Shown one piece after another: positions 9,842 to 64,000 of a DNA stretch of 64,000 nt (its first letter is position 1; each line of letters starts with the position of its first letter). A program made the translations under genes and the position numbers. The stretch is taken from positions 86,490,001-86,554,000 of the forward strand of contig OZ336870.1 in assembly GCA_965287045.1 (NCBI GenBank), in the 5' to 3' direction. The notes under the pieces are model-generated. The model ran no database searches, had not been told where the DNA came from, and saw nothing but the letters and a program-made list of their open reading frames with translations. This DNA comes from Carcharhinus amblyrhynchos (lineage: Eukaryota).

Positions 9842-10085
9842 CATCCATCTCTGACTGATGGAGTGGTAATTTGCCAGATTGGATTTGTCCTGCTTTTTTA
9901 TGGGCAGGACCTAGCTGGACAATTTTCCACATTATTGGATAGATTCCAGTGTTGTTGCTGGGCTGGGGATGCAGCAAAGGGTGGGATGCATCTTGTAACA
10001 ATCTCCCCGAGATAAACTGGGATTGATGGACAGCATTGAAGGTGAGCAATAGTACTGTAGATTTGCTCTGTCAAAGAATATTTTT

Positions 10086-10287
10086 GTTGTGGGTATGCCG
10101 GCGTTGGACTGGCGTTAAACACAGTAAAAAGTCTGACAACACCAGGTTTTAGTCCAACCTATTTATTTGATAATATACTCACAAGCTTTCGGGGTTAGCC
10201 CCTGACGAAGGGGCTAACCCCGAAAGCTTGTGAGTATATTATCAAATAAATAGGTTGGACTAAAACCTGGTGTTGTCAGACTTTTTA
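10086..10287. mobile_element. Palindromic Penelope-like (PLE) mini-copy
   Basis: 80-bp perfect inverted repeat (10124-10203 / 10209-10288) with loop gacga. Nearly identical to the 3' end of the PLE at 46292-46796. Flanking direct repeat caaagaatattttt (10072-10085 / 10288-10301). Confidence 0.9.
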
Positions 10288-11261
10288 CAAAGAATATTTT
10301 TAGCAGCGCAGTTCATCACTGTACAACATCCAATTGTGGTGTAGAAACTAAAATATTTCAACATGCTTTCACTTCCTTCAGTGGGGCCTCTTACCACATA
10401 TCGTAATGGAGCCAGGCTACAGATTTCAAATTTAAAGGTCTTTTTCCTCCTTTTGAAACATTCATGGATTGTGTCAGGCAGAGTCTCGAACTGCGTTCTT
10501 GGTCAAATAGGCTGCCATAGGCCCCTCATATGAAAATCTCTCATCTCATGAAGAGCATCAAGTCTGGTTAATTTGCCACATGACAAGTGGGAGCATGATG
10601 GAGAAGGCTGTACTGAATTCCATGTTTAAATTTATTTTGCACAGCTGACTGCAAGTTTTGTACATTACCAAAACAGCCTGTTCACACAAACTGCGGATTT
10701 ACTATCCAATATTTAATTATTAGATGTTGACATCTGCAAGTGGCCACGGTGGCTTGACAACAAGTGTCAACACCAAAGATAACAAACCACAATCATACCT
10801 GATAACCATGTTGCTTGTGGCAGAGCCTGCCTCTTGCAGATTGGTTTCTTCAGCCGTCAGCCAAAGTGCACTACGTGAATCTATCCCATCCCCAGTGGGT
10901 ATTCTGCATGTCCATGACGTTACGTAAATGAAAGGATGCTGCTGCCACTGATGTTTCAAATGTTCAATGGTCCTTCATTTCAGATGTAAAGAGACTTTTT
11001 ATATTGACGTGGCCTTAGTTCAGATTTTGAGAGATAATTTGTGCATCAGCTTCTAACAGTCACAATCTCAAATTTGGGGTCCTGTATCCTGGTGGCAGTG
11101 TGTACATCCAGTTCTTGGAATTTTCCAGTTAAGGTTGCTGAGATAAAGAGGCTTGCAAAGATTGTATAAACACTGGCTTGGGAAGGGGTGTTTGCTGGAG
11201 AAAGAAGGAAAGGAAAATGTTCTCCACTTCCAGCTTTTGGTATTCTGCCTTACTAACTCCA

Positions 11262-14826: not shown

Positions 14827-15143
14827 TCATAGAATCCCAGCGATAAATGGCAGATGGAGTTTAATTTAGTGCAGAAGGAGGCCATAGGCCCATCAAGTCT
14901 GCACCATCCCCAGTCCCATCCAGGCTCTATTCCTGTAACCCCACGAGTTTACCTGGCTGATCCCCGACACTTGGGTCAATTTAGCATGGCCAGTCTACCT
15001 AACCTGCACATCTTTGGATGTGGGAGGAAACTCATCAGACACGAGGAGAATGTGTAAATTCCCCACAGACAGTGACCCGAGGCTGGAATTGAACCCGGGT
15101 CCCTGGCACTGCGAGGCAGCAGTGCTAACCACTGTGTCGCCGC
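14827..15143 (-). mobile_element. HE1-type V-SINE
   Basis: Minus-strand tRNA head (cagtggttagcactgctgcctc...gggacccgggttcaattcc), V-domain (ccaaagatgtgcaggttagg) and ttctatga tail. Confidence 0.9.
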
Positions 15144-17250: not shown

Positions 17251-18544
17251 CATTTCCCCACACACTATTTGTGTATATTGGGGCACTTTTTACTGAGCTG
17301 GGTCCTTTGAGTTGAAGATACCTGTCTTTGTAGCCAAGATCCAATCCCATATCAACATTTATGAATGGCTTAGGTAAGTACTTGAAGAGAAGAGGATTAA
17401 AGGGCTTGGGAATAGGATGGGCAGATGGCATTGAGATTACGTCTTAAGTAGAAGATAAATATCAACACTGAAAAAGTGGGTTGAATTTTGTTTTCATTTT
17501 AAGTAGTAACATGTTCATTTAGCAAAAATAAAAATTCTCTCAAATAAAGGGTTACCAGTTTTGGAAAGTCTGAGTCCTGCTTAGTTTAACTAGATGACTT
17601 TCAATAGCACGATTAAAGTAAACAAAGCAAACAAGTAATTACTGAGGTACCAGATTTCTCTCTGTCAAGTGGTTTTGTGAGTTGCTCCACTTCTAGTGTA
17701 TTACTAGTGGCAAACATAAAATATAATCATATCCAGCAGTTATTGGGTGCGATTTTTCAGCTTGCATTCTCCGTCAGAAAGAAGGCAACATGAGTTGAAA
17801 ATCCAGAGAGATTTGGGAAAAGTGATTCTCTCTGAAAAGATTGTGTTCTGTGATTTTTTTTTTTCCCCTGTCCCTCAGCACTGACGTTGAGATGATCAAG
17901 GCCACAGCCAATTTGATTCACGCTTATCAAAAAATGGCTCAAGGCACTGACAAAGGGCCCTGACAATATTCTAGCAATAGTACTACAAGCATGCTCCAGA
18001 ACTTGTCGTACCTACAGCTATAGCAGTAGCATCTACTGGGCAATGTAGAAAATTGCCCATGTATGTCCTGTACATACAAAGCAAGCCAATTACCGCTCCT
18101 CAGTGTACCCTCAATCATTGATGAAGTGATGGAAGGGACCATCAACAATGCAATCAAGTGGCACTTGCTTAACAATAACCTCCTCACTGACGTTCAATTT
18201 GGGTTCTACCAGTACCATTCAGCTCTTGACTTCATTACATCCTTGGTTCAAACATGGACAAAAGAGCTGAGCTCCAGAGGTGAGGTGAGAGTGACTGCCC
18301 TTGATATCAAGGCTGCATTTGACTGAGTACAGCATCAAGAAGCCCTCGCAAAGGGTGGGGAGAGTGGTGGAGTCTCACCTAGCACAAAGGAAGATGGTTG
18401 TGGCTGTTGGAGGTCAATCATCTTCAGTTCCAGGACATCAGTGCAGGTGTTCCTGAGGGTCCCTGGCCCAACCATTTTAGCTGCTTCATCAATAAACTCC
18501 CTTCCATTAGAAGGTCAGAAGTGGGGACATTCACTGTTCTGTTC

Positions 18545-18941: not shown

Positions 18942-19939
18942 GCATTTCCTCCACAGTGGCAGCAGTGTGTACCATCTACAAGATGCACAGCTGGAGCCCA
19001 CCTAGGCTCTTTAGAGAGCACCTTCCAAACCCAAGATCACTACCAACTAGATGGAGAAGGACAGCAGATACATGGGTGTTGCCCTCCAAGCCACTCAGCA
19101 TCCTGACTTGGAAATATGTGGCTGTTCCTTTTGTGTCGTTGGGTCAAAATCCTGGGACTCCCTTCCTAATATCATTGTTGGATCACCTACACCACATGGA
19201 CTGCAGCGATTCAAGCGGGCAGCTCACCACCACTTTTGCAAGGACAGTTAGGATTGGTAGTGAATTCTGGCCTCTCCAGTGAAGCACGCATCCTTTTAGT
19301 GAATAAAAAAATTGTCAGCAGAACTTATGTTATAAACTTTGGAATGTGCATTGGCACATCCAGCATAAATAGATATAGTCTTGAGCCACTTGGACGGGTG
19401 TTCCGTAAAAGAATGTACATCCGTTTCACTTACTGCAGTGCACATTTGTTGAACTACCCTGAATGCATTTAAAAACTAGTGTGTCCCACTAAAAGTGCAG
19501 CATTCCAACTTTCATTTTAGAACAATTGATTCAATTTCAACTCACAGCGGCAACCAATATTTTACTGCATTTAATGTAATTTTTGGCTCAAACTGAGCAG
19601 ATTTGCATACACTTTTTTTAAACATAGAACATCTGTTTTCAGCTGAAAACAGACCTTGTAAGTCTGTTGGTTGTGGTGTTTAAGAAAGTGAGATTGCCTT
19701 GAGACTGCTGTGCTTGGTAACTCCTACTGGAACAAGTAGTTTTTAGTGTTCAAGTAAAACAGAATAAAATTCAAGACTGAAGAAGAATTTAAAGTCTCTT
19801 ATAGGAGAGGTAACCATCAAAATTGATACAGACCTTTATACTTTTAGTAGGTTTACCTGCTCATCAGGGAAACAAATGCACTGGCAAAAAAAAGCTGATG
19901 TTAATGAGGATGTTGTGGGAGAATTGCTCAATTTAATAA

Positions 19940-20555
19940 ATTTGATTTGATTTATTATTGTCATATGTATTATCACACAGTGGAAAGTATTGTTTCATGC
20001 GTGCTATACAAACAGAACATAGCATTCAGAGAGAAAAAAACGAGAGAGTGCAGAGTGTAGTGTTACAGTGTAGAAAAAGATCAACTTAATGCAGGGTAGT
20101 CCATTCAAAAGTTAGCAACAGGGAAAAGCTGTTCTTGAGTTGGTTGGTACGTGACCTCAGACTTTTGTATCTTTTTCCCCGAAGGAAGAAGGCGGAAGAG
20201 AGAATGTCTTGGGTGTGTGGGGTCCTTAATTATGCTGGCTGCTTTGCCGAAGCAGCAGGAGGTGTAGACAGAGTCAGTGGATGGGAGCTGGTTTGCGTGA
20301 TGGATTGGGCTACATTCATGATCTTGTGTAGATCCTTCTGGTCTTGGGCAGAGCAGTAGCCACACCAAGCTGTGATACAACCAGAAAGAATGCTTTCTAT
20401 GGTGCTTCTGTAAAAGTTGGTGGAAGTCGTAGCTGATGTGCCAAATTTCCTTAGTCTTCTGAGAAAGTAGAAGAGTTGGTGAATTTTCTTAACTATAGTG
20501 TCGACATGGGGGGACCAGGACAGGTTGTTGGTGATCTGGACACCTAAAGACTTGA
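19940..20555 (-). mobile_element. Rex1/Babar-clade LINE 3' fragment
   Basis: Homologous to 40713-41264. KAASIIKDPTHP..HSLF.LLPSG motif. (aaatc)n tail. Confidence 0.85.
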
Positions 20556-20809
20556 ATTAAATTAAATTTCATATTCTGTGGCATCACTCCGCAGGTCTCT
20601 TTTCTCCTTAGCAGACTTCCCACAGCTGTTGACTAGGCTTCAGTAGACTGCATATAAATTGCACCCCAATTTGATGCATTATATTTGACATTTAAATGTC
20701 TAACTGAAGGTAAAGAAAATGACAAATGGATGTGAAAGCTAGTGGGATAAAATTTCCACTTACAAATGGAACACTGAATCTAAATTGCACTTGAAATTCT
20801 AATTTTTCT

Positions 20810-21784: not shown

Positions 21785-23250
21785 AAAACATATTACTGCT
21801 GACGCTGGAATCTAAAAAAAATTGAAAATGCTGGAAAACTTCAGCAGGGCTGACAGCATCTGTGCAACATAAGAACATAAGAAATAGGAGCAGGAGTAGG
21901 CCATCCAGCCCTTCGAGCCTGCCCTGCCATTCAATAAGGTCATGGCTGATCTGAAGTGGCTCAGTTCCACTTTCCTGCTTTCTCCCCATAACCCTTAATC
22001 CCCTTGCCTACCAAAAACCTATCTACCTGTGACTTAAATATATTTTAGCGAGGTAGCCTCCACCACTTCAACGGGCAGAGAATTCCAGAGATTCACCACC
22101 CTTTGAGTGAAGAGGTTCCTCCGCAACTCTGTTCTAAACTGTCTCCCCCCCCCCCTTATCTTGAGGCTGTGCCCTCTACCCTATCCATCCCTTTCATCAT
22201 CTTATACGTCTCAATAAGATCCCCCCTCATCCTTCTAAACTCTAACGAGTACAAGCCCAGTCTATTCAGCCTCTCTTCATAGCTCAACCCCCTCAACTCC
22301 GGTATCAGCCTAGTGAACCTCCTCTGCACTCCCTCCAAGGCCAAAATATCCTTGCGCAAGTGCGGCAACCAAAACTGCACACAGTACTCCAGCTGCGGCC
22401 TCACCAGTGCCCTGTACAGTTGCAGCAAGACCTCCCAACTTTTACGTTCAATCCACCTCGCTATGAAGGCCAGCATCCCATTTGCCTTCCTGACCACCTG
22501 CTGCACCTGTAGGCTGGGTTTTTGCGACTCATGCACAAGGACCCCCAGGTCCCTCTGCACCGTAGCATGCTGCAGCTTTTCGCCCTGTAAGTAGTAGCCC
22601 TCCCTACTATTATTCCTACCAAAGTGGATAACCTCACACTTGCCAATATTGTATTCCATCTGCCAGGTCCTCGCCCACTCGCTCAGCCTATTCGGATTGG
22701 CGGTTGGTGACTAGTGGAGTGCCCCAGGGATCGGTGCTGGGGCCTCAGCTATTTACCATTTATATAGATGATCTGGAGGAGGGAGCCGAGTGTAAGGTAT
22801 CCCTCTGCAGACTTTCTACATCCTCCGCACAATTTGCTGTTCCACTTATCTTTGTGTCATCAGCAAATTTCGACACCTTACACTCGGCTCCCTTCTCCAG
22901 ATCATCTATATAAATGGTAATTAGCTGAGGCCCCAGCACCAATCCCTGGGGCACTCCACTAGTCACCAACCGCCAATCCGAATAGCACCCATTGACACCC
23001 ACTCTCTGCCTCCTATTTGACAGTCAATCCCCTATCCACGCTAACACCTTACCCCCAATTCCATGCCCCCTAACCTTCTGTAACAATCTTTTGTGCAGCA
23101 CCTTATCAAACCCCTTATTAAACGTGGAGAATGAATAGAGTTAACGTTTTGAGTCGAGATCTGATGAAGGGTCATTAAAATATTACCTCTGTTCTCTCTC
23201 TCCACAGATGCTGTCAGACTTGCTGAGATTTTCCAGTATATTCAGTTTTG
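21785..23250. mobile_element. PLE family 2 palindromic element split by a CR1 insertion (arms about 21785-21865 and 23124-23250)
   Basis: ctgacagcatctgtg|gtggag... left part is inverted relative to ctccacagatgctgtcag (about 23200-23218). CTGATGAAG core at 23161. Confidence 0.7.
21866..23116 (-). mobile_element. 5'-truncated CR1 LINE (family A) with an internal inverted duplication
   Basis: ORFs 22156-22659 and 22760-23002 (FADDTK). (aacataag)n tail at 21866. Inverted arms 22688-22798 / 22875-22985. Confidence 0.95.
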
Positions 23251-27649: not shown

Positions 27650-28830
27650 TTTTTTTTGTGCCTGTGAATGTCACTGCCAAGGCCAGCATTTATTGCTTAT
27701 CCATAATTACTCTCAAAGGTGCTGGTGAGCTGCTTAGAGCAATATCAGGAAGGAAGTTCCAGAATTTGAACCAGAGCCAGTGAAGGAATGGAATAATGGA
27801 ATAGAATAATGTATAATTCCAAGTCAAGATAGTGTGTTGTTTAAAGGGGAATTTTCATATGGTGGTGTTCCATGTGTCTGCTGTCCTTGTACTAGGTGGT
27901 AGAGATCACAGGTTTGGAAGAACAGTTGAAGAAGCCTTGATGAGTTACTGTAATAAATTTTGTACACAGCTGCCATTGTGTGATATTGGGGTTTTTTTGA
28001 CTTGAATAAGATCTGTTAGGTGTTTTATCAATGGTGTTCCCTCCACCATAAGGTAAATGGGAACGTTTGCTAATGATGGTGTAGTGTAGAGTAACACTTA
28101 CGAGTCTTCAGATGCAAGAGCAGGCCATGTCCATATGCAGAAAGACCTGGAAAGCATTCAGGCTTGCTAATATATTAATAATATTATTGGTGATATTATT
28201 ACCAATAATATCTGGCAAGTATTATTCACATAATTCACATGATATTGGGGGAACTGTATATATTAATGATGGAAGATGGCTGCATTATCCTGGATTGTGT
28301 TGAGCTTTTTGAATGTTATTGGAACTGCACTCATCAGGCAAGTGGAGAATATTCCATCACACTCTGTAGATGTGCCCTGTAGATGGTGGATAGGCTTTGG
28401 GGATTCAGGAAGTAAGTTTTTCTTTGCAGAGTTCCCAGCCTCTGACCTGCTCTTTTGGCCGCTATTTTTGAGACTATTCTAGTTAAGTTTCAGGTCAGTG
28501 GTAACATTCAGGATATTGTTGGTGGCAAATTCAGTGATGGTAATGCGGTTGAGTGTCAAAGCGAAATGATTAGATTCTCTCTTGTTGGAAATGGTCATTG
28601 CTTGCACTTGTAGATGTGAATAATACTTGCCAGATATTATTGGTAATAATATCACCAATAATATTATTAATATATTAGCAAGCCTGAATGCTTTCCAGGT
28701 CTTTCTGCATATGGACATGGCCTGCTCTTGCATCTGAAGACTCGTAAGTGTTACTCTACACTACACCATCATTAGCAAACGTTCCCATTTACCTTATGGT
28801 GGAGGGAACACCATTGATAAAACACCTAAC
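27650..28830 (-). mobile_element. LINE family B 3' fragment containing an inserted inverted copy of its own downstream part
   Basis: Tail ggccagcatttattg at about 27680. Collinear with 5900-6700 except for the insert at 27992-28239. Confidence 0.8.
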
Positions 28831-28853
28831 AGATCTTATTCAAGTCAAAAAAA
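27992..28853. repeat. 240-bp inverted repeat (27992-28231 / 28614-28853), 382-bp spacer
   Basis: Arms appear identical by eye. They give the mirror ORFs 28112+ and 28733- (MQEQAMSICRKTW...). Confidence 0.95.
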
Positions 28854-29302: not shown

Positions 29303-29586
29303 CAGAATTTCTACAATGCAGAAGGAGGCCATTTGGTTCATCAAGTCTGCAGTGACTCTCCAACAGGACATCTTACTTAAGCCCGTAACCCTGCACATTT
29401 ACCATGGCTAATCCACCTAACCTGCACATCTTTGGACTGTTGGAGGAAACCGCAACACCAGAAGACATTCATGTAGACACAGAGAGAATGTGCAAACTCC
29501 ACAGTCACCCAGGGCCGGAATCGAATCTGGGTTGCTAGCACAGTGGTGGAGGCAACAGTGCTAACCACTGTGCTACCATGCTGCCC
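29303..29586 (-). mobile_element. HE1-type V-SINE
   Basis: gggcagcatggtagcacagtggttagcac head, V-domain and CR1-like tail on the minus strand. Confidence 0.9.
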
Positions 29587-29639
29587 AGAAATAGAGTAAC
29601 TTACGGGATATTTCTGGATCAGTGGTATGGCAAGGGTTG

Positions 29640-35705: not shown

Positions 35706-36041
35706 ATCATAGAATCATAGAACCCTACTGTGCAGAAAGAGGCCATTGGCCCATCGAGCCTGCACTGACCACAATCCCATGCAGGCCCTACCCCCATATC
35801 TTACCCACTAATCCTTCTAACCTACACGTCTCAGGGCACTAAGGGGAAATTTTAACATGGCCAGTCAACCTAACCCGCTCATCTTTGGACTGTGGGTGGA
35901 AACCGGAGCACTCGAAGGAAACCCACGCGGACACAAGGAGCATGTGCAAACTCCACACAGACAATGACCCAAGCCGGGAATCAAACCCAGGTTCCTGGAG
36001 CTGTGAAGCAGCAGTGCTAACCACTGTGCTACCGTGCCACC
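35706..36041 (-). mobile_element. HE1-type V-SINE, near full length
   Basis: ggtggcacggtagcacagtggttagcac head, V-domain and (ttctatga)n tail. Confidence 0.92.
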
Positions 36042-36049
36042 CATAGTAC

Positions 36050-40290: not shown

Positions 40291-40405
40291 TTGAAGGAGC
40301 AGTGCTTCGAAAGCTCATGGTTCCAAATAAATTTGTTGGATTTTAACCTGGTGTTCAGAGACTTCTTTCTGTGCCCTCCGCAGTCCAACACCAGCATCTC
40401 CATCC
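40291..40405 (+). mobile_element. PLE 3' terminal fragment (older relative of family 1)
   Basis: tgaaggagcagtgcttcgaaagctc...aaataaa...gttggattttaacctggtgtt...cagtccaacaccagcatctcc, homologous to 46680-46796. Confidence 0.8.
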
Positions 40406-40712
40406 CATCTAGTTTAGGAAAGCAATTGGATCATGAATGACAAGTTGCATTTAACTAATTTGTGTTCTAAACTTAATATTATTAATTAATATGTACCTAT
40501 TATTTATTATGTTAAGTATGTGGAGTAGGTATTTCATTGCCCTCAATATCTTTTGTTTCTTTAGATTGAGTTCAGTGGACATAAAAGTGAAGCAACCAAG
40601 TTGCGCAATCCACAGTAGTGATTTACTGTGAGTGTACATCACTATGGTTGGACAAACTCCATAAACAGGTTCTCAATTGCTCAAAATATTTTCTGTTCTT
40701 TGTAATTAAATA

Positions 40713-41264
40713 TCTAGTTAAGAAAGCCCATCAATACCTCTACTTTCTCAGGAGGCTAAGGAAATTCGGCATGTCCACGATGGCTCTCACTAACTTTTAC
40801 AGATGCACCATAGAAAGCATCCTTTCTGGTTGTATCATTAGCTTGGTATGGCTCCTGTTCTGACCAAGACCACTAGAAATTACAAAGGGTCATGAACAAA
40901 ACCCAGCCCATCATGCAAACCATCCATTGACTGTGCCTACACTTCCAGCTGCCTTGAAAAGCAGCCAGCATAATCAAGGACCTCCAGCATCCCAGAGATA
41001 TTCTCTTCCATCTCCTTCCATCAGTAAAAAGATACAAAAGGCTGAAATCACGTACCAGTCGACTCAGGAACATCTTTTTTCCCTGCTGCCATCAACTTTT
41101 GAATGGAGCTACCTCATATTAAGCTGACCTTTCTCTATGTCCCAGCTATGACTGTAACACTACATTCTGCACCCTCATTTATCCTTCCTGATGAACAGGT
41201 ACAGCGCGCGAGAAACAATACTTTTCGCTATATACTAATACATGTGACAATAAATCAAATCAAA
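40713..41264 (+). mobile_element. Rex1/Babar-clade LINE 3' fragment
   Basis: KKAHQYLYFLRRLRKFGMSTMALTNFYRCTIESILSGCI. Tail aataaatcaaatcaaat. Confidence 0.9.
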
Positions 41265-42999
41265 TGTTTGAAATAATGCACCATAACTTCCTTGGATGGC
41301 AATCAGCATTGTATTGCCACTTCATACAGACTTACCTGCAATTAAATTCTTGAGTACCTGTCTCGCCCAAACTTCCTGACTCAGACTGGGAGAATTCAGG
41401 CAGCAAAGCAGATGGTCAATTGTAAAGGAGGACACACTTTTTTTTTCAGTCTTGATTTTTAGTGCAATTATAGCTTAATTTATCATAAGATTTACAAGGC
41501 CCTGATTAAACAAAATAGACTATTGGAAATAACATAAACTCGATACAGTAGAAGCAAGTGTGCAAAAGTAGCACTCAGAGAAAACAATGCATACACAACC
41601 TGGTTTATATTTGTGCAGCATTTCAGGCCCATTCTCTAAATCGGGATTAGGAAAAAACTCATAACAAAATAGATCTAAACCTCCTTTTTACAGCACTAGC
41701 TGTAAAAGTTTAACCGTCCTGTTGGAAGTAACAGGCCAAGGAGGAGGCAAGTATCGAAATGAATGAGGTGGAGGGGGCGAGGTGGGGAGGGGGTTGGTGT
41801 TGGTGGAACATGGGGTGATGGATGCAAATATTGGGAGGAGGGAGTGTGGGTTCTGACACTCGGGCTAGGGAAATGAGTTAGACATTGGTGTGTGGGGTTT
41901 TGCTGGGTGAACCCTTACTTGGGAACACTCAACAGGGATTCCCCAGTGCATCTTTGGGGTACCCCTCATTTCTGATGCTGGGGAGCTAGGAAGCTGCCGG
42001 CAATGCTTTCAATATTATCTATATGAATAAAACATTTCACAATAACTTGGTGACGTTTTATTCATAAGAATGCCATTTCACATCTTCATTATAGTTTTAC
42101 TTGAAAGCCTCAGCCTCTCTCAAAAACTTAAGCTTCAACTTGACTTTTTGGCAAAGAATTGTGAGCTGAATTTGAAATATATAATTTGAGCATGCATGTG
42201 CCTGTGCCTAATTTTGCAGATTGAATCAGTATTCAACCAATTGTGCTGTTTTTATCTTTAACTTCTAATCAGCTGTTTGTCTTTGTTGAGATGAAAATTA
42301 AGGGGCAGTGTGCATACATTATGGAAAGTTGCATGTTGCAATTGTGCATTATAACTTGTGTTCTTCAGGAAATACATTAAACTGAAGGGGAGAGTAAACC
42401 TTTGTGTTGATTTCAACTTTCAAGAACCACCCACGCTAATTACATTTTAAAGTTAGCTGCTTATTTTGATTTTTGTGACAATGAGGAAAGACGATTGTTA
42501 ACCATTGCTTATGAGAGTCAGAAAAAGACAATGTTAATTCAATCTTGGAGGCAAATAATTAGTTTATATATGTTGGGGAGGAAGTATTAGGAAGTAAATG
42601 CAGAGCTTTCATCAACAGTGTCTCATTCCCAGCATTGTAACTGGAACAGTGTGCCACTTAGCCTTTCACTTTCTCCATTTCCCATGCAATTATAATTAAA
42701 GTTCCAAGTGCCAGTCGTGTCCATGGAAAATGTTGCGATTCAGCATCAGGGGAAGCATATCATTGGTGAAACTCACCGTCAGCTGATAATGCAGCAGGTA
42801 CTGGTGGCCATAAAAAAAAACTTTCTGGACAAACAGAATCTGCATCACAGCCATATCTTTCCTGCCCAACTACATTTCCGTTAACAATAAAACTTGAGAG
42901 CACAAAGGTGCAACGTGTGTTTTTCAAATTAAAATTTCATTTAAAAATACTTCACATTACATTTGTTTCATTTCATTCATTTGTGCACCATGGGTATTT

Positions 43000-44292: not shown

Positions 44293-45025
44293 CACCCACC
44301 TTTAAATTTCAGGGAATTCTTGTATACCACTGATTTCATCCCAAATGTAGGACCTCATTTAATAAATGAAAAGAGGTGACCAGCAGAAGAGGAGAGGTAA
44401 TAAGAAACAGGAAAAGAGAGATAACTGAGGAAAATGTGGCACTGTCTGTATTCTCTGACTAGGGAGAGTCTGTCAAACCCTGGAAGATTGATTAGTGTTT
44501 AAATAATATCAGTAAATCTGTCACGTTTTTTGAAAAATCCATATAACTCTTGTAATAGTCCAGCAAGATTTTGCACAATAAATGCAACATTATGTCATGG
44601 TTTTGTTCTGCATACATTTGTGGTCAAGCCAGCAGATACTGCTATTGAAAAATTTTTGTTTTAAAATAACTTTCTCATCTTTCATCCAGTCGATTAATGT
44701 TGATTTTCTGCTGTTTGAAGGTAGTTTGCAAACTAAGTGTTAAGTCAGGAACTGACATTTCAAACTCATCATTATTAATTCTATATTCTTCTAACTTTTG
44801 ATCCCTCATTGGATTCCCCAGTCTTCTTGCTCTCCTGACATCCCTCATTTTTGCTCATTAGCATTTCCCAATGTCCCATTTTCCTTGCTTACACATTCTA
44901 TTGCTTCAGTTTTTATCCATACCTGCCTCTCACTAATACTGTTTCTGTCCTTATTTTATGCCTCATCTCTTGTGGCCCATTTGAACTTCAGAAGTATTGG
45001 GAACATTGGAGCAGGAGTAGGCTAT

Positions 45026-45337
45026 GTTTTTAAAATTTTTATTGAAAAAAAGAAAATTCAAATTGAATCCAATTCATAGTCCCCACATATGGGACAAACT
45101 AGATCCAAGCTGACAGGATGAGGCATTGCACCCCATCCCAGGCTTGATGTGACAATTCCATCGTAGCCAAAAGGCCAAGATTGCTTTAAAAAAATTGCAT
45201 CAGGTAAAACCTCGGTTTGGCCTAATTGGCCATTCTGATCCTTTACTTTACCCTAGCCCAGGCAAACCAGCACACCTGGGGTAAATTAGGGTAGCCTCAT
45301 CACCTGCCTGATCATTGACTCTCCCCTGCCAGGTAAT
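45026..45337 (-). mobile_element. U1/U2 snRNA-derived SINE-like element (SINEU-like)
   Basis: Minus strand begins TTACCTGGCAGGGGAGAgtcaATGATCAggcAGGTG (U1 5' end). Contains TCTTGGCCTTTTGGCTACGAT (19/21 to the U2 5' end; 45160-45180). Ends AATAAA plus an A-rich tail. Interrupts a CR1 tail. Second copy at 47541-47672. Confidence 0.75.
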
Positions 45338-46291
45338 CCCTTGAATGTTTTCTGCCATTCAGTAAAATCGTGGTTGATTTGCACCATCATTCCAAATACC
45401 TGGCTTTCCCTTGTACCCTTCTTAATTGTTTGGTTAAGAAAGTTAGATTAGTCTGAGATTTAAAATTGGTAATTGATCCAGCATCAATTTCCAATTGTTG
45501 GTGAAAGGTCCACATTTCTACCATTTTGTGTATAGAAATATTTCTTAATTTCACTCCTGAAAGGTCTGGCTCTAATTTTTAGATAGTGTTTCCAGTATTA
45601 AACTATCAGCAGTGGGGGTAGTTTATTCATCTTATCCGCTCCCTTAATATTTTTCGAACAAATCACCCCTTAACCTTTTAAATTCCAGGGAAAATAACAC
45701 ATATCTGCATAATCGCTCCTTATAATTTAGCCCTTCAAGTCCAAGTATTATTCTAGTAAATCCATGTTATATTCCTTTCAAAGCCATTACATCCAGCCCA
45801 AGATGTAGTTTGCAGAATGACCAGGTGTGCTTGAAACAAGGCTTTACTCCCTTGTATCCTACTCCTGTGGATAAGGCAAGTATTCCACTAACCTTGTTGA
45901 TTATTTTCTATATCTGTTTTTGACATTTTAATGGTCTGTTTACATGGACCCCAAATCTCTTTGACCGTCACAGTTTTCAGATTTTCACCATTAGAATGTA
46001 TCCTATTCTATTTTAATTAGATCCAAAATGGGTGACTTTACATTTTCCCAAATTGAATTTCATTTGCCATAGTCTTGCCTGTTTACTTGACCTGTCACTA
46101 TCTTTTTATGATTTTGTGCTTTCATCTACACTGCTTATAGTGTTTATCTTTGTGCCACAGCAATCCTCAGCTAAATTATTAATGAAGATGGTGAATAGTT
46201 CAGGCTCTAACAGGCTCCTTCTGAGACACCAGTAGTCACATCCCACCATTTAGAGTACCTGGCTCTTATTCTTCCTCTGTCTCCCGCCGCT

Positions 46292-46796
46292 TCACTTCAG
46301 TGGTCACGGGCATTCAGCCTCTGACCTTCGGGTAAGCATTCTCCAAGGCAGCCTTCACGACAGCGCAGAGTTGCTGAACAGAGACTGATAGCCAAGTTCC
46401 GCACACATGAGGACAGTCTCAACAGGGATCTTGGGTTCATGTCGCACTGTCTGTAACCCCCGTGACTTGCCTGGGTTTGCAAAACCTCACTTACTGTACT
46501 GTCTGGAGACAATACACATCTCTTTAAACTGTGATCAGTGCTCCTTCCACTCACATTATCAGCCACTTCAGGTCTTGAACAGCAGGTTAGGTGTAAGGAT
46601 TCGCATTCTAATCAGTAATCTCTAAACTGTCTGTGCTTTATATGCTGTGTGTGAGGCCAGAACTCTCCATTCACCTGACGAAGGGGCTAACCCCGAAAGC
46701 TTGTGAGTATATTATCAAATAAATAGGTTGGACTAAAACCTGGTGTTGTCAGACTTTTTACTGTGTTTACGCCAGTCCAACACCGGCATACCCACA
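46292..46796 (+). mobile_element. 5'-truncated Penelope-like element: GIY-YIG C-terminus plus terminal repeat
   Basis: HFSGHGHSASDLRVSILQG...QRRVAEQRLIAKFRTHEDSLNRDLGFMSHCL* (one frameshift), typical of the PLE endonuclease end. TSD tcccgccgct (46282-46291 / 46797-46806). Confidence 0.92.
46671..46706 (+). ncRNA. Minimal type I hammerhead ribozyme motif of the PLE
   Basis: tcac-CTGACGA-a-ggggctaacccc-GAAA-gctt-gtga: helix I tcac/gtga, intact core boxes, a 4-bp helix II, and helix III reduced to a palindrome (aagctt). This matches the minimal hammerheads described for PLEs. Confidence 0.75.
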
Positions 46797-47540
46797 TCCC
46801 GCCGCTCAGCCAACTTCCTAAGCGTTCAGTAATTTTCCTTCATGTTGATGAGCTTTCGCTAACAGTCTCTTTGAGAGATTTGATCAAATGCCTTCTGAAA
46901 GTCCAAAGGAATGGCATTTGTAGACATTCCCCTGTCCATTCTTTTAGTCACTTCTTCAAAGAGTTCAGTCAGGTTTGTCAGGCTTAATCTACTCTTCATA
47001 AAAACCAGAAAACCAATGATGCAGAACAGCTGTAGGAGGGGAGTCGGTGGAAACATTGTAGGAAAACTGTATATATGAATGCATTGAGAGCAGGTATTAC
47101 AAGGAGAATACGATAAGATGGCATTGGAGACATGGGCATCAAGGGGGGCAATAACAGAGATTTTTGGGGGTTCCAAATTGGAGTGTGGGACAGCTGGACG
47201 TATCAGAGGCATAGGATTGGAAGTAGCTCAAGCAAAATGATCAGGGAAATCAAAAGGGGAAGGACTTATAGAGACAGTCATCTAACTTCCCTCAAGCAGC
47301 ATCACAGAAGTCTGCTTTTTTTAGCAACTGAAATACATGACTATTTGTAAACATTGATGAAGAAATAAAGTTTACTTGGCTCAGTGTTCTCATCCCCAGA
47401 TGCCTTTTGGTAAAGATGTGGGTGAGTTTTGTTGTAATATGTTTACTGTGACTTTTATAATGCTGGTACTTGGCAAACATGAAAGGGATACAATATCTGA
47501 CTATGATCTGGTGCTCCTATGTTACAACAACAGTTAGCAT

Positions 47541-47672
47541 GCATCTCTGCCATTTGGCTAAGATCAAGCATCAGATCAAGCCCAGGATGTGGTGCAGTGC
47601 CTTCAGCTTGGATTTTATTTGTGTGTTTTCTGGGGACCTTGAATTGGGTTCAGCTAGAATTTGAATTTGGTT
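47541..47672 (+). mobile_element. Second copy of the snRNA-derived element (U2 segment plus body)
   Basis: TCTCTGCCATTTGGCTAAGATCAAG (47544-47568) is 23/25 to the U2 5' end. Body atcaagcc..ggatg.ggtgca.tgcct...cagcttggat...tggggac..tgaattgg.ttca matches the reverse complement of 45055-45150. Confidence 0.7.
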
Positions 47673-47741
47673 TTTGGAGCAAGGAGTGGATTTGGGTCAG
47701 CCTGCACCATTCTAAGCATTGACTTTGTAAGTTCGAGGTTT

Positions 47742-48017
47742 TAAAGTTTATTTATTAGTGTCACAAGTGGATTTACATTAACACTACAATGAAGTTGCTG
47801 TGAAAATCTACTAGTCACCATACTCCAGTGCCTGTTTTGGGTACACTGAGGGAGAATTTGGCATGGCCAATGCACCTAATCAGCCCACCTTTTGGACTGT
47901 GGGAGGAAACCCTGGGGAGAATGTGCAAACTCCAAACAGTGACCCCAGCTAGGAATTGAATTTGAGTCCTTGGCATTGTGAGGCAGTAGTGCTAATCACT
48001 GTGCTACTGTGCTGCCC
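47742..48017 (-). mobile_element. HE1-type V-SINE with an alternative 3' tail
   Basis: Head and V-domain as in other copies, but the tail is ...ttttcacagcaacttcattgtagtgttaatgtaa...gtgacactaataaataaac. Confidence 0.85.
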
Positions 48018-48639
48018 AGGAGTAAAACATGAAAAAAGGATGGCATGAAAATAGCCTGCTTCCCCTATGGTTCACAAGGTAAATTTTGGGGATTTATAAG
48101 AAAATGTGCTCAGCACCCTGAAAACTAAATATATCTGCAGGAATCTATCACTGTATTTTAACTTTACCTTATTCTGAAATATTGACTGTTTGGAAAATTG
48201 AGCTATTTTTAAATGATCAGTTTCCAAAGGATATTGCAGGACAAGAAAATGTGGTGACTGTTGAAAAGTTTACATGTTTATTTTGTAAACATTTCTATAT
48301 GTTGCAAATGTACTAATATAGAAGACTTCATGTATGTTTAGTTTGTTTCAAAACTCTTATTTGTAATGTATGAAACATTCTTATAGGTAAAATTTTTTTT
48401 TGCATTGTGAACCACAGCCAGAACCAAAAGATGCAATATTATTTGCTTGTGTAAGGAAAATAAAATTCATTTACCATTTTATGAATGAAATAGCTACAGT
48501 GGTAGATAGGAAATAAACCTGCATTTGTAAACCCATTTATTCTATTGAAGTCAGGTTACAAACTTGAGGGTATCTTATTCAAGAAGTACAATTGACTACA
48601 TTTAATGTACAGTGTAAGTGCTATGTTCATGTAGAGCTT

Positions 48640-48911
48640 GTAACACCTCTAAATAGTTCAGTCAGGTTTGTCAGGCTTAACCTACTCTTTATAAAAACCA
48701 GAAAACCAATGATGCAGAACAGCTGTACAAGGGGAGTCAGCATTGTAGGGAAACTGAATATAGGAATGTATTGAGGGAGGAATGCATTTGAGGGAGCAGC
48801 GCTCTGAAAGCTAGTGACTTGTGCTACCAAATAAATCTGTTGGACTTTAACCTGGTGTTGTGAGACTTCTTACTGTGTTTACTGCAATCCAACGCCGACA
48901 TCTCCATATCG
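48640..48911 (+). mobile_element. Chimeric PLE insertion: captured local DNA plus PLE 3' end
   Basis: TSD tgtagagctt (48630-48639 / 48912-48921). 48655-48727 matches 46962-47034 at 71/73. The PLE terminus starts at about 48789. Confidence 0.85.
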
Positions 48912-52388: not shown

Positions 52389-54864
52389 AGAACATAAGAA
52401 CATAAGAAATAGGAGCAGGAGTAGGCCATCTAGCCCTTCGAGCCTGCCCCGCCATTCAATAAGATCATGGCTGATCTGTCGTGGCTCAGTTCCACTTTCC
52501 CGCCCTCTCCCCATAACCCTTAATCCCCTCTCTTATCAAGAACCCATCAACCCGCTTCTTAAAAATATTTAGCGAGGCAGCCTCCACCACTTCAACGGGC
52601 AGAGAATTCCAGAGATTCACCACCCTTTGAGTGAAGAAGTTCCTCCTCAACTCCGTTCTAAACCGCCTCCCCTTTATCTTGAGGCTGTGCCCCCTAGTCC
52701 TACTGTCTTTTTTGAGCGGGAAGAGTCTCTCCACCTCTATCCTATCCATCCCATTCATCATCTTATACGTCTCAATGAGATCTCCCCTCATTCTTCTAAA
52801 CTCTAACGAGTACAAGCCTAATTTATTCAGCCTCTCCTCATAGCTCAATCCCCTCAACTCCGGTATCAGCCTAGTAAACCTCCTCTGCACTCCCTCCAGG
52901 GCCAAAATATCCTTGCGCAGGTGCGGCGCCCAAAACTGCACACAGTACTCCAGCTGCGGCCTCACCAATGCCCTATACAGCTGCAGCAAGACCTCCCTAC
53001 TTTTATATTCAATCCCCCTCGCTATGAAGGCCAGCATCCCATTCGCCTTCCTGACCACCTGCTGCACCTGCAAGCTGGGTTTTTGCGACTCATGCACAAG
53101 GACCCCGAGGTCCCTCTGCACCGTCGCCTGCTGCAGTTTTTCGCCCCGTAAGTAATAGTCCTTCCTACCATTCTTCCTACCAAAGTGGACCACCTCGCAC
53201 TTGCCAACATTAAATTCCATTTGCCATTTCCTGGCCCATTCGCCCAGCCTATCTAGATCCTTCTGCAGACTCTCCACACCCTCTGCACAATTTGCCTTTC
53301 CCCCAATCTTGGTGTCCTCAGCAAATTTCGACACCCTGCACTCGGTTCCCTCCTCCAGATCATCTATATAAATGGTAAATAGCTGAGGCCCCAGCACCGA
53401 CCCCTGGGGCACCCCACTAGTCACCAACCGCCAATCCGAATAGCACCCATTGACCCCCACTCTCTGCCTCCTATTTGACAACCAATCCTCTATCCACGCT
53501 AACACCCTACCCCCAACTCCATGTCCCCTGACCTTCTGCAATAACCTCTTGTGAGGTACCTTGTCAAACGCCTTCTGAAAATCCAGAAAGACCACATCCA
53601 CCGGCTCTCCTCTATCCACTGCCCTAGACACATCCTCATAGAACTCCAGTAAATTTGTCAGACACGACTTCCCTTTAATGAAACTGTGTTGCATCTGCCC
53701 TATCAAGCAATCCCCTTCAAGATGCCTCGCAATTTCCTCCTTAATGACGGATTCTAACATTTTACCTACCACAGACGTTAAACTAACCGGCCTATAATTC
53801 CCCGCCTTTTGCCTGACACCCTTCTTAAACAACGGCGTAACATTAGCCGTTTTCCAATCTTCCGGCACTTCCCCGGAATCCAGCGATGTCTGGAAAATAA
53901 CCACCAAGGCATCCACTATAACCTCCGCCATTTCTTTCAGAACCCTCGGATGCATTCCATCCGGTCCTGGCGACTTGTCCACAATCAGCCCCTCCAGTCT
54001 GTCGAGCACCAGCTCTCTAGTAACAGTAATGTCATTAAGACCCTCCAGTCCTACCACCTTTCCATCGCTAACACCCGGCAAATTATTCACGTCCTCCTCC
54101 ATGAAGACAGAAACAAAAAAGTTATTCAAGACCTTAGCCATTTCCCCATCCCCTACCACTAGGTCCCCTTTCTCATCCTCTAAAGGACCAACGTTCACCC
54201 TAGCCAGCCTCTTCCTTTTTATATATTTATAAAAACTCTTGCTATCCTTTTTTATATTAAGTGCTAGCCCAGCTTCATAGCTTCTCCTACCCTCCTTTAT
54301 CAACTTCTTTTTCAATCTTTGTTGACATTTAAACCTTTCCCAATCCTCTTCTCGCCCACTGCTCTTAGCTACTCTAAATGCCTCCGCTTTTAATTTAACA
54401 CTTTCCTTCACCTTCTTCGTTATCCACGGCTTATTACCTCTCCTCCTACAGTCCTTTTTGACCATCGGAATAAATTTCTGCTGAGCACCAAGAAAGATCT
54501 CCTTAAAGATCCTCCACTGCTCCTCAGCAGACCTACCTTCCAACGCGCTCCCCCAGTCCACATTCGCCAATTCTTCTCTCATCCTACTATACTCCCCTCT
54601 ATTCAAACAGAGGACGCGTGTCCGGGAACCCACTTTCTCCTCCTCCATCTGCAACAGAAACTCCACCATGCAATGATCACTCTCTCCAAGAGGATCCTTC
54701 ACCGCAAGGTCCCTAATTCTACCTGCCTCATTACATAGCACCAGATCCAAGATAGCTCGCTCCCTCATCGGCTCCAACACACACTGTTCAAGGAAATTAT
54801 CCCGGCAGCATTCCAAGAACTCCTCCTCGAGCCCACCTCATCCAACATGGGTTGACCAATCAAT
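52389..54864 (-). mobile_element. 5'-truncated young CR1 LINE (family A), 2.5 kb
   Basis: (aacataag)n tail at 52389 and an uninterrupted 776-codon ORF2 segment. Confidence 0.97.
52486..54816 (-). CDS. CR1 ORF2 fragment (end of AP endonuclease, RT, C-terminal domain); probably non-functional
   Basis: ILDLVL and LGESDH (endonuclease). [37 protein letters not shown]. Catalytic motif reads FAED rather than FADD. The N-terminal endonuclease is missing. Confidence 0.9.
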   Translation of the reverse strand: MECCRDNFLEQCVLEPMRERAILDLVLCNEAGRIRDLAVKDPLGESDHCMVEFLLQMEEEKVGSRTRVLCLNRGEYSRMREELANVDWGSALEGRSAEEQWRIFKEIFLGAQQKFIPMVKKDCRRRGNKPWITKKVKESVKLKAEAFRVAKSSGREEDWERFKCQQRLKKKLIKEGRRSYEAGLALNIKKDSKSFYKYIKRKRLARVNVGPLEDEKGDLVVGDGEMAKVLNNFFVSVFMEEDVNNLPGVSDGKVVGLEGLNDITVTRELVLDRLEGLIVDKSPGPDGMHPRVLKEMAEVIVDALVVIFQTSLDSGEVPEDWKTANVTPLFKKGVRQKAGNYRPVSLTSVVGKMLESVIKEEIARHLEGDCLIGQMQHSFIKGKSCLTNLLEFYEDVSRAVDRGEPVDVVFLDFQKAFDKVPHKRLLQKVRGHGVGGRVLAWIEDWLSNRRQRVGVNGCYSDWRLVTSGVPQGSVLGPQLFTIYIDDLEEGTECRVSKFAEDTKIGGKANCAEGVESLQKDLDRLGEWARKWQMEFNVGKCEVVHFGRKNGRKDYYLRGEKLQQATVQRDLGVLVHESQKPSLQVQQVVRKANGMLAFIARGIEYKSREVLLQLYRALVRPQLEYCVQFWAPHLRKDILALEGVQRRFTRLIPELRGLSYEERLNKLGLYSLEFRRMRGDLIETYKMMNGMDRIEVERLFPLKKDSRTRGHSLKIKGRRFRTELRRNFFTQRVVNLWNSLPVEVVEAASLNIFKKRVDGFLIREGIKGYGERAGKWN

Positions 54865-61115: not shown

Positions 61116-61149
61116 CTCCTTTACTACTTACTACTACTATTACTACTGT

Positions 61150-61300
61150 TCAAAGATGTGTGGGTTAGGTTGATTGGCCATGCTAAAATTGTCCCTTGGT
61201 GTCACGGAGATTAATTAAGTGCATGGGATTACTGGGTTAGGGCCTAGGTAAGATTGTTGTTGGTGCAGGCTCAATGGGCTGAATGGCCTCTTTCTGCAGT
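61150..61300 (+). mobile_element. HE1-type SINE 3' half
   Basis: caaagatgtg..ggttaggttgattggccatgctaaa...gggctgaatggcctc. Confidence 0.75.
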
Positions 61301-62589
61301 ATCCTTTTCCCTTGTGAAGACAGACTCATTCAGTACCTCAGCCATGCTTTCTACCTCCATAGAAAGATCTCATTTTTGGTTCCTTATCAGCCGCAGCCAT
61401 TCCTTTGATTACCCTGTTAACCTTTTGAGTTGAGGAAAAAGTTGCTGCTGTGATTCAATACCAGTATGGCATGACTGATTATCAGTGGTATGATGCAGTT
61501 GGAAATCTTTAAAGGCCATGTTGAAGGCACTTCTACACAATCAAATGTGCTTTTTTACAGTGGTCATAGTGTACAGAATAAAATGGAAAACTATGAAGAA
61601 AATATATTTGTTTTAATTTTTGACATGGTGCAGGAAGATATTTGCTGTTAGGATTTGAGTGAAGGAGATGCTGCTCTGACACCATGTTCCCATGTTATTA
61701 TTTTGAAGAATGCGCAGTCTTTGATTATGCACAACCCATAGGTAGGACATAAAAATGTTTCAACAAGATATGATGTGGTATGATTGATAGAAAAATGCCA
61801 TGTTTTGTCGTGCTGCAAAAATATAATTGATCATTCTAGGTACAACAAAAGTGATAGTAAGTAATAATCCATAAATATAGATATTGAAGGTCTGCATGTG
61901 TAATAGCAATAAATGTTGCATTTATTTTACCTTGCTGATGTGAAATCAGCTTTGACTAGCATTCGTGCTGGAATCCACTTTTCCAAGCATTCCTGCTGCA
62001 TTATAAATGAGATGGCACCTCTTGTTGCTGCAGTTCCACCACAGGCACAGTACTGAGAGATATAAACAACTGTGGCGTGCAGTCAGTTTAAATGGTGACC
62101 TTAGAGGCCAACCAGTTCTGTGGTTGTTTTATCACTGGCCGGCACAAACCAAAAAATGTTTGCAGCTGGAAAGATAATGTACAAGTCTGCACATGCATAG
62201 TTTTCTATTGCTGCTGCTGGTTCTAGGAAATCTATCGCTCCATTTAATCAGTTCAAATTGCAGAACGCTGAGGGTTGAAGTATGTTGTCAAAGCTCTTCC
62301 CTATTGTAACTATGTTACAAGAAATCATGTTTTTCTGTTGTCTTGTGATACCATCAAATTTAATATCACTGGTTTGTATTCACCAGTGCAGACCAGTAAC
62401 ATTCTCTAGGTTTTTAGATGGTGCTCCAGAATATCATGGTCTGCTTTTTGCCTTTTGGATGAGATGCTGACTCGAGGCTACATTTGCCCTCTCAAATTAA
62501 TATAAAATATTCCATGACACTATTTTGAAGAGCAAGGGGATTCTAGTTGGCATCTTGGCCAATGTTTATCCACCAATGAACATCAATAA

Positions 62590-63080
62590 TGCTCACAGAA
62601 GCACCATAGAAAACATCCTTCCTGATATATCATAGCTTGGTAGGGCTCCTGCTCTGTCCAAGACCGCACGAAACTACAAAGGATCACGAACAAAGTCCAG
62701 TCCATCACTCAAACCAGCCTCCCATCGTTGACCCTTCCTACATTTTCCACTGCATTGGAAAAGCAGCCAGCATAATCAAGGACCCCACGCATCCAGGGCA
62801 TACTTTCTTCCACCTCTTCCTGTCGGGAGAAAGATACAAAAGTCTGAGGTCACATACTAACTGACACAAGAACAGCTTCTTCTCTGCTGCCATCAGACTT
62901 TTGAACGGACCTACCTTAAATTAAGTTGATCTTCCTCTACACCCTAGCTATGACTGTAACACTACGTTCTGCATGCTCTCCTTTCCTTCTCTATGAACAG
63001 TGTGCTTTGTCTGCATAGCATGCAAGAAACAATATTTTTCACTATGCTAGTATGTTTGACAATAATAAATCAATCAATCA
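62590..63080 (+). mobile_element. Rex1/Babar-clade LINE 3' fragment
   Basis: KAASIIKDPTHPGHTFFHL. Homologous to 40800-41264. aatc tail. Confidence 0.85.
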
Positions 63081-63096: not shown

Positions 63097-63435
63097 GGTG
63101 GTACATTGGTTAGCACTGCAGCCTCAAAGCACCAGGGACCCCATTTAATTCTGGCCTTGGATGACAATGTGGAGTTGGTACACTCTCCCTGTGTCTGCAT
63201 GGATTTCCTCGGGGTGCTCTGGTTCCCTCCCACGGTCAAAAGATGTGCAAGTTAGATGGATTTTCCAGCCTAAAATTGCCCCTTTGGCCAAATATGTTTA
63301 TGTTAGGGGATTAACCATGGTAAATGTGTGGCATTACACTGGGGCGCCCTGGATAAGATTAAGATGCTCTTTTGGAGATGAGGTGCAAACTCGATGGGCC
63401 AAAAAGCTACTATCTACCCTGTAGGGATTCTATGG
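63097..63435 (+). mobile_element. HE1-type V-SINE
   Basis: tggttagcactgcagcctca head, V-domain and gggattctatg tail. Confidence 0.85.
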
Positions 63436-63758: not shown

Positions 63759-63896
63759 AGTAAAAAGTCTGACAACACCAGGTTTTAGTCCAACCGATTT
63801 ATTTGATACTATCAGATAAATCGGTTGGACTAAAACCTGGTGTTGTCAGACTTTTTACTATGTTTACCCCAGTCCAACGCCGGCATATCCACATCA
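63759..63896. mobile_element. Palindromic PLE family 1 mini-copy nested in a PLE family 2 remnant (about 63700-63990)
   Basis: 51-bp arms 63758-63808 / 63810-63860 (1 mismatch) plus a 36-nt tail. TSD tctctgtccagt (63747-63758 / 63897-63908). Confidence 0.9.
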
Positions 63897-64000
63897 TCTC
63901 TGTCCAGTTGCAGCCAGACCTGCTGAATTTTTTCCAGCACTTGCAGCTGATTTTGTTTCAGGTTTCCAGCATCCTCAGTATTTTGCTTCCATCAAAAGCG

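Follow-up and report, generated by a model that had tools for sequence, protein, structure and literature searches.

Two old copies of a rearranged U2 element in a shark genome, one with stacked U1 heads, best seen as a SINEU-like variant

Background

The closest described systems are the SINEU retroposons of crocodilians, in which U1 or U2 has supplied the 5′ head. According to the available portion of their description (PMC4494074), subfamily SINEU-1J bears a short U2 head, further subfamilies had U1 added once or twice, SINEU-2 combines U1 with U2, and SINEU-3 consists of the 5′ 32 bp of U2 and a middle segment of 83 bp. These elements are dispersed in hundreds to thousands of copies that stem from several masters, they end in a 3′ poly(A) tail, and they contain internal T runs. 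Their target preference is shared with a Tx1 family (Tx1-Mar/Mariner-N4), and the insertion sites of SINEU-2 may also be blunt or target-trimmed. The same portion of that paper reports no SINEU outside crocodilians and leaves open how these elements are transcribed without an internal promoter.

In their available portions, PMC5381603 and PMC12054243 (2025) mention SINEU solely from crocodilians, the word snRNA does not occur in PMC5499810, a paper on the SINEs of chondrichthyans, and PMC5786205, PMC5753468, PMC7245038, PMC7922186, PMC13343379, and bioRxiv 2025.02.02.635956 contribute nothing about sharks. A literature search that stopped short of subscription journals, Repbase Reports, and Dfam gave no report from cartilaginous fishes of a SINE with an snRNA head, and the shark family may already be catalogued in Repbase or Dfam.

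Here, we describe two related insertions, copy A and copy B, from a 64-kb window (the whole stretch of DNA that was analysed) of Carcharhinus amblyrhynchos. The shark element is a real retro-element of snRNA origin. We interpret it as a variant of the SINEU kind from a new host lineage, in which the U2 core has been rearranged and U1 heads have been stacked, a view that rests on two old copies.

Results and discussion

An snRNA-derived insert in a CR1 tail

Copy A occupies positions 45026-45336 on the minus strand (311 bp) and is non-coding. Read along that strand, it consists of U1 head 1, U1 head 2, a linker, a rearranged U2 core, an AATAAA motif, and an A-rich tail. Its host is a CR1-type LINE remnant, of which the 5′ side, a decayed RT and 3′ UTR, lies at 45337-46216 (minus), and of which the tail resumes 3′ of the insert at 44985-45025 (minus). 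Judged against seven other CR1 tails in the window, the host homology reaches 45337 and picks up again at 45025, leaving 0-4 target bases unaccounted for; the insertion was almost blunt. A previous reading of this DNA, made from the sequence only, had held that the insert cleanly interrupts a CR1 tail and that no TSD is evident. Both statements proved correct, with CR1 homology on either side and no TSD abutting copy A in the CR1 flanks. A candidate 7-nt repeat was rejected, as it is set 9 nt into the left CR1 flank and has no contact with the element.

The AATAAA (45043-45038) and the A-rich stretch that follows it to 45027 had been described before and are found as described. Together they span 45027-45043 (minus), and a regular-expression search identified them as the sole such tail in the 64-kb window. 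Flanks of the kind that surround snRNA genes are absent around copy A, which splits a CR1 tail instead. These data support copy A as a retro-insertion of snRNA origin in a genome of elasmobranch type. On the plus strand, positions 45329-45337, antisense to the U1 head, form a consensus-like 5′ splice site, which would matter only if the region is transcribed in that direction.

Two U1 heads and a linker

The U1, U2, and U4 matches given here are hand counts against human sequences printed in papers, from which the shark snRNAs may differ, and the chance expectations attached to them are binomial arithmetic. U1 head 1 (45268-45336, minus) joins U1 5-42 to U1 54-84. Its first bases (45336-45320) are identical to U1 5-21 (17/17; chance expectation 3e-5), positions 45336-45299 match U1 5-42 at 32 of 38 bases (4e-8), and positions 45298-45268 match U1 54-84 at 21 of 31 (8e-5). 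This agrees with the 17-nt identity to the U1 5′ end and with the U1-like continuation, lacking about 11 nt, that had been noted before; the missing bases are the 11 nt of U1 43-53. This 17-mer is unique within the window, even when three mismatches are allowed. A cmscan search, once suggested as a means of recognizing U1 and U2 in the insert, yielded no Rfam match to U1 in any of the five scans that covered the head region.

The U1 part had been thought to be followed by a spacer of about 85 nt. That spacer is not anonymous, for at its start stands another U1 5′ end in a more decayed state, head 2 (45235-45265, minus). It matches head 1 at 23 of 29 bases with two 1-nt gaps, a similarity that none of 3000 shuffles and none of 3152 genomic windows equalled, and a separate repeat comparison recovered the pair over 20 nt at 80%. 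The two heads differ identically from human U1 at three of the positions 22-25, which suggests that they came from a common modified source, although shark U1 may itself differ there.

The remainder of the former spacer is a linker ending in T7 (45188-45234, minus). Part of it (45232-45210) resembles the U4 5′ stem-loop at 17 of 23 positions by hand count against the printed U4, with a chance expectation of 0.22, and may be either that stem-loop or the decayed rest of head 2. The linker gave no cmscan match in Rfam, U4 included, and the second half of the spacer does not align significantly with head 1. No further copy of the U1 head or of the spacer was found in the 64-kb window.

A rearranged U2 core

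The U2 part begins with stem-loop I (45160-45187, minus), within which 45180-45160 match human U2 7-27 at 19 of 21 positions (chance expectation 2e-4), in line with the U2 5′-end segment recognized earlier. Nucleotides 32-48 of U2 contain the branch-point pairing sequence. In copy A they are replaced by 46 nt (45114-45159, minus) that form an 11-12-bp hairpin, and in copy B by 34 nt of the same insert. With regard to functional features of U2, the branch-point recognition sequence (nt 33-38) is replaced in both copies. An origin of the insert from head 1 found no significant alignment on either strand. Decayed U2 49-84 follows, comprising an SL IIa remnant and SL IIb (45079-45113, minus; 23/35 against human U2 with one gap, colinear, chance expectation 0.01). 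Here SL IIb (45095-45079) has 17 nt as in U2, 12 of them identical, and retains a 5-bp stem. The core closes with a duplicated pre-Sm segment and the T tract of the U2 Sm site (45044-45078, minus), at which the U2 homology of copy A ends.

A segment of this body had been likened to the U1 Sm/SL4 region. We rejected this assignment since U2 SL IIb fits in length, position, and pairing: the G run forms the 3′ arm of the hairpin here and the 5′ arm in U1 SL4, and the segment is colinear with U2. The body of copy A is mostly rearranged U2 and not a new body with a piece of U1 Sm/SL4.

The earlier description of a hairpin body stands, as the core (45060-45190) folds with a z-score of -3.8, and none of 200 shuffles was as stable. 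Within it, 45108-45064 folds in copy A as a 17-bp hairpin (z=-3.6; 0/300 shuffles), in which the SL IIa remnant pairs with the duplicated pre-Sm segment and so lengthens SL IIb. Over both copies, 31 of the 34 cells of this hairpin are paired (91%); no compensatory change is seen between the two sequences, and the fold is not significant in copy B alone.

A second copy and a common source

Copy B (47538-47739, plus, about 200 bp) was found by blastn (match 47543-47675, plus, E=2e-14). It comprises, all on the plus strand, U2 4-31 (47541-47568; 25/28), the shared insert (47569-47602), a U2 49-84-like part (47603-47637), the duplicated pre-Sm segment (47638-47670), and U2 100-160 (47671-47729; 40/59 with two gaps, 7/7 pairs in the outer stem of SL III). 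It thus runs on through U2 SL III/IV, while copy A ends at the Sm tract. Copy B begins at the U2 5′ end, with neither a U1 head nor a spacer. By cmscan, it is a U2 match of 31.3 bits (E=7e-5; model 1-31, a gap, Sm site, SL III), and its 3′ half alone goes undetected. In copy A, the U2 match by the same method reached only 13.2 bits (E=2). Both values lie below the Rfam gathering score of 46 for U2, and Rfam scans of the window gave no match at gathering level.

The cores of the two copies are identical at 101 of 139 aligned bases (73%). With the U2 head left aside, the bodies align with a score of 102, whereas the best of 3150 genomic windows reached 50.5. The pre-Sm duplication of copy B (13/16) was equalled in 1 of 2000 shuffles and 7 of 3154 windows. 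The non-U2 insert and the pre-Sm duplication occur in copy A as well as in copy B, a shared derived structure confined to the core, and the two copies therefore stem from something other than an ordinary U2 gene. The Jukes-Cantor distance between them, 0.34, implies that they are old.

The copies lie on opposite strands, 2.2 kb apart, a spacing with a chance probability of about 0.08. Being only two and so close together, they could be taken for a single old U2 pseudogene and its local inverted copy, later modified, with no family behind them. Their flanks, however, cannot be aligned with each other, and copy A has an A tail and splits the CR1 tail cleanly, as a retro-insertion would; a local duplication is very unlikely. 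The flanks of copy B are not significantly similar to CR1 or to those of copy A (n=2), and a placement of copy B inside a CR1 tail was rejected for want of significant similarity.

The 3′ end of copy B is masked by an abutting tRNA-type SINE (47740-48019, minus), with five more family copies in the window, a family that we take to be V-SINE/HE1-like. Copy B shows no visible A tail, its 3′ end being hidden by this SINE, and no TSD. A direct repeat of about 50 nt (47475-47526 and 48025-48074) that encloses copy B and the SINE was dismissed as a TSD, as 92 of 3000 shuffles matched it post hoc and 962 of 1000 did so on wider flanks. The pre-Sm segment of copy B (47651-47669) shares 17 of 19 bases with the antisense head of the adjacent SINE (47946-47964), perhaps by chance; an alignment of the whole regions is not significant.

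Family and unit

The sequence-only reading had postulated a separate snRNA-derived SINE family as well as a fixed unit of U1, spacer, U2, body, and A tail. A family is supported by the U2-derived core, which is repeated with shared derived changes in the manner of a SINE family. The fixed unit describes copy A but not copy B, and the U1-U2 link is therefore seen in one of two copies. Copies A and B are, in the best reading, members of a SINEU-like family to which U1 heads were added at the 5′ end.

The fixed unit could still have been the family master if copy B had lost its U1 part by 5′ truncation. Copy A is a coherent single insert in the CR1 tail, and the stronger decay of head 2 relative to head 1 implies that a U1-headed form existed for some time. 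Yet copy B opens with the U2 5′ end and retains U2 100-160, a stretch absent from copy A, so that copy B cannot be a truncation of the copy A unit, and the window holds no other head or spacer copy. We consider such a master quite unlikely.

Two copies were seen in 64 kb, and the single extra one would allow a density anywhere in the rough range of 400-87,000 per Gb. Searches of the 64-kb window with blastn, nhmmer, and a covariance model, its filters on or off, gave no third copy (next best 12 bits, E=0.4). Among collections that are not expected to contain the element, bacterial genomes and phages gave no match, and plasmids gave six AT-rich tail matches at E 0.3-0.9.

Comparison with SINEU and U2-targeting LINEs

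We compared copies A and B with SINEU-1 and SINEU-2 as well as SINEU-3 through their published descriptions, and the likenesses below extend as far as the available portions of those descriptions. The shark copies share with SINEU a 5′ head from U1 or U2 (U2 by cmscan in copy B and by the 5′-end match in copy A, U1 by hand count only), a derived core structure common to both copies, a size below 500 bp, and T runs without an internal Pol III promoter. Recurrent 5′ addition of U1 is represented by the two stacked heads of copy A, with none in copy B.

Among the subfamilies, SINEU-1 (J, A/B/G/I, G2) and SINEU-2 resemble the shark copies in having a U2-headed core with U1 pieces added 5′, and SINEU-1G2, in which a second U1 sits on a U1-headed form, is paralleled by the stacked heads of copy A, albeit at one locus. 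SINEU-1 and SINEU-2 also show partial duplications within their snRNA parts, A tails, T runs, and blunt or trimmed sites. In contrast, the 3′ region of SINEU-1 is of unknown origin, whereas the shark body is mostly U2. SINEU-3 is an altered U2 that keeps the first ~32 nt and a ~80-nt 3′ U2 block and breaks just before the branch-point pairing sequence, as copy B does. However, it deletes ~50 nt where the shark element has the insert for nt 32-48, SL IIa/IIb remnants, and a duplicated pre-Sm segment, and it targets Mariner-N4_AMi, whereas copy A lies in a CR1 tail. The hosts also differ: crocodilian for SINEU and elasmobranch for copies A and B.

The U2 lesion overlaps the target of the LINEs Keno and Utopia, between nt 38 and 39 (PMC4640811, available portion), and these LINEs disrupt the same region of U2. 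A remnant of such a LINE, inserted in a U2 gene, is nevertheless scarcely credible. Keno and Utopia leave U2 from nt 39 onward after their tail and encode proteins, as that portion has it, and neither is found in copy A or B. Both copies lack U2 33-48 on both sides, the insert and the 3′ part of U2 are not separated by an A tail, and the tail of copy A is followed by CR1 and not by U2 nt 39+. The idea that the body is the end of a U2-targeting LINE, considered in the earlier reading as a possible refutation, is disfavoured by this absence.

Proposed mechanism of amplification

We postulate, with a probability of about 0.58, that copies A and B were inserted long ago and independently and belong to a family of non-autonomous retroposons with a core of rearranged U2, moved by a LINE that accepts A-tailed RNA, with U1 added in the lineage of copy A. 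The anatomy, the two copies with shared derived changes, and the insertion in the CR1 tail are observed; family size, the LINE partner, template jumping, and Pol II transcription are inferred. The source RNA would have consisted of U2 1-31, a short stretch inserted where nt 32-48 would otherwise stand, decayed SL IIa/IIb, the pre-Sm segment in duplicate, and the Sm region; in the copy B form, SL III/IV were retained as well. It may have been copied to new sites by target-primed reverse transcription, with the LINE acting in trans on the A-tailed RNA. The partner may belong to the L1 or Tx1 clade, judging from the A tail alone. In the lineage of copy A, the element would have been cut at the Sm tract and then have acquired the AATAAA and A tail, and template jumping would twice have added U1 5′ pieces at its 5′ end, for which SINEU-1 and SINEU-2 of crocodilians offer a parallel.

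T4+ runs number six in copy A and three in copy B. No A box was matched in either copy and no B box in copy A; a loose B-box expression gave two matches in copy B only, at the U2 head motif. The T runs and the missing A box argue against Pol III and thus for transcription from outside the element, probably by Pol II. A Pfam search of 150 of the 212 non-CR1 ORFs (60 aa or more) gave three retroelement fragments and one sub-threshold match, none identified as Tx1, and no Tx1/L1 partner was seen.

A possible, though less probable, alternative is that a shark U2 paralogue mutated where it stood, remained expressed from its external snRNA promoter, and gave rise to both copies as processed pseudogenes, without further amplification, and that copy A is a one-off template-switch chimera with U1. 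Copy B comes close to a full-length U2 and includes SL I, the Sm site, and the outer stem of SL III, and the derived 17-bp hairpin is paired over both copies as in a structured RNA. Retrocopies of snRNAs that are 3′-truncated, A-tailed, or chimeric, with an snRNA 5′ piece on another template, are well known and resemble copies A and B (PMC4476161, available portion). However, such pseudogenes copy the normal gene, whereas copies A and B have in common an insert and a duplication not present in human U2. The differences from human U1 common to both heads suggest that these derive from a head that had been modified before, and not from U1 newly copied. In addition, the available portion of the same study shows no U1/L1 template-switch chimera among 33 human U1 copies, which makes two U1 additions in one insert unlikely as a one-off event. 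The SINE-family reading and the variant-gene alternative differ only in whether the copies became masters themselves.

A bolder and rather doubtful scenario is that sharks independently evolved an abundant snRNA retroposon. Its master would be a splicing-dead U2 with the branch-point region swapped for a hairpin and SL IIb extended to a 17-bp stem, expressed from an external snRNA promoter, and its descendants would have stacked U1 heads and possibly the U4 5′ stem-loop. If this is true, the loss of U2 from nt ~32 in both lineages would be a design rule that spares the spliceosome from poisoning and evades Keno and Utopia, and a shark U2 master with an external promoter would answer how the promoter-less SINEU are transcribed.

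A second case of U1/U2 SINEs, in elasmobranchs, would show that spliceosomal RNAs turned into retroposons repeatedly or very anciently, and would allow a comparison of which snRNA parts must stay or go. If the density seen here is typical, thousands of copies in shark genomes may be wrongly annotated, either as pseudogenes of U1/U2 or as repeats of unknown type.

Repeat context of the window

No host gene was found by Pfam among the 150 of 212 non-CR1 ORFs (60 aa or more) searched. A CR1 ORF2 (52486-54837, minus) is open for 783 aa and belongs to a fairly young copy, with relatives at 8020-9841 and 21866-23122 that are 86-91% identical. Among the 120 of 5502 protein matches listed for it, the highest named identities are to Chiloscyllium (68% over 48% of the query) and Mobula (58% over 100%); named birds and turtles reach 36-54%. 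These identities make an elasmobranch host likely.

The tRNA-type SINE family comprises six copies (14867-15136, 29397-29588, 35730-36043, 47740-48019, 61145-61301, and 63097-63313) with a common head and middle and different 3′ tails, in which ARAGORN found no tRNA. A perfect 240-bp inverted repeat (27992-28231 and 28614-28853; 100% identical, 382 bp apart) is either a MITE-like element of very recent origin or an artefact of the assembly. A short repeat family with inverted halves, presumably Penelope-like, is up to 98-100% identical (10085-10288, 46674-46798, 48788-48910, 63759-63899, and 40291-40410). Remnants of other LINE families were recognized by matches to the ALKBH8_N domain and an RT fragment at 20233-20556 (minus), 40591-40860 (plus), and 18030-18323 (plus). 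Finally, the segments 19931-20495, 40715-41274, and 62595-63077 are mutually related at 74-77%.
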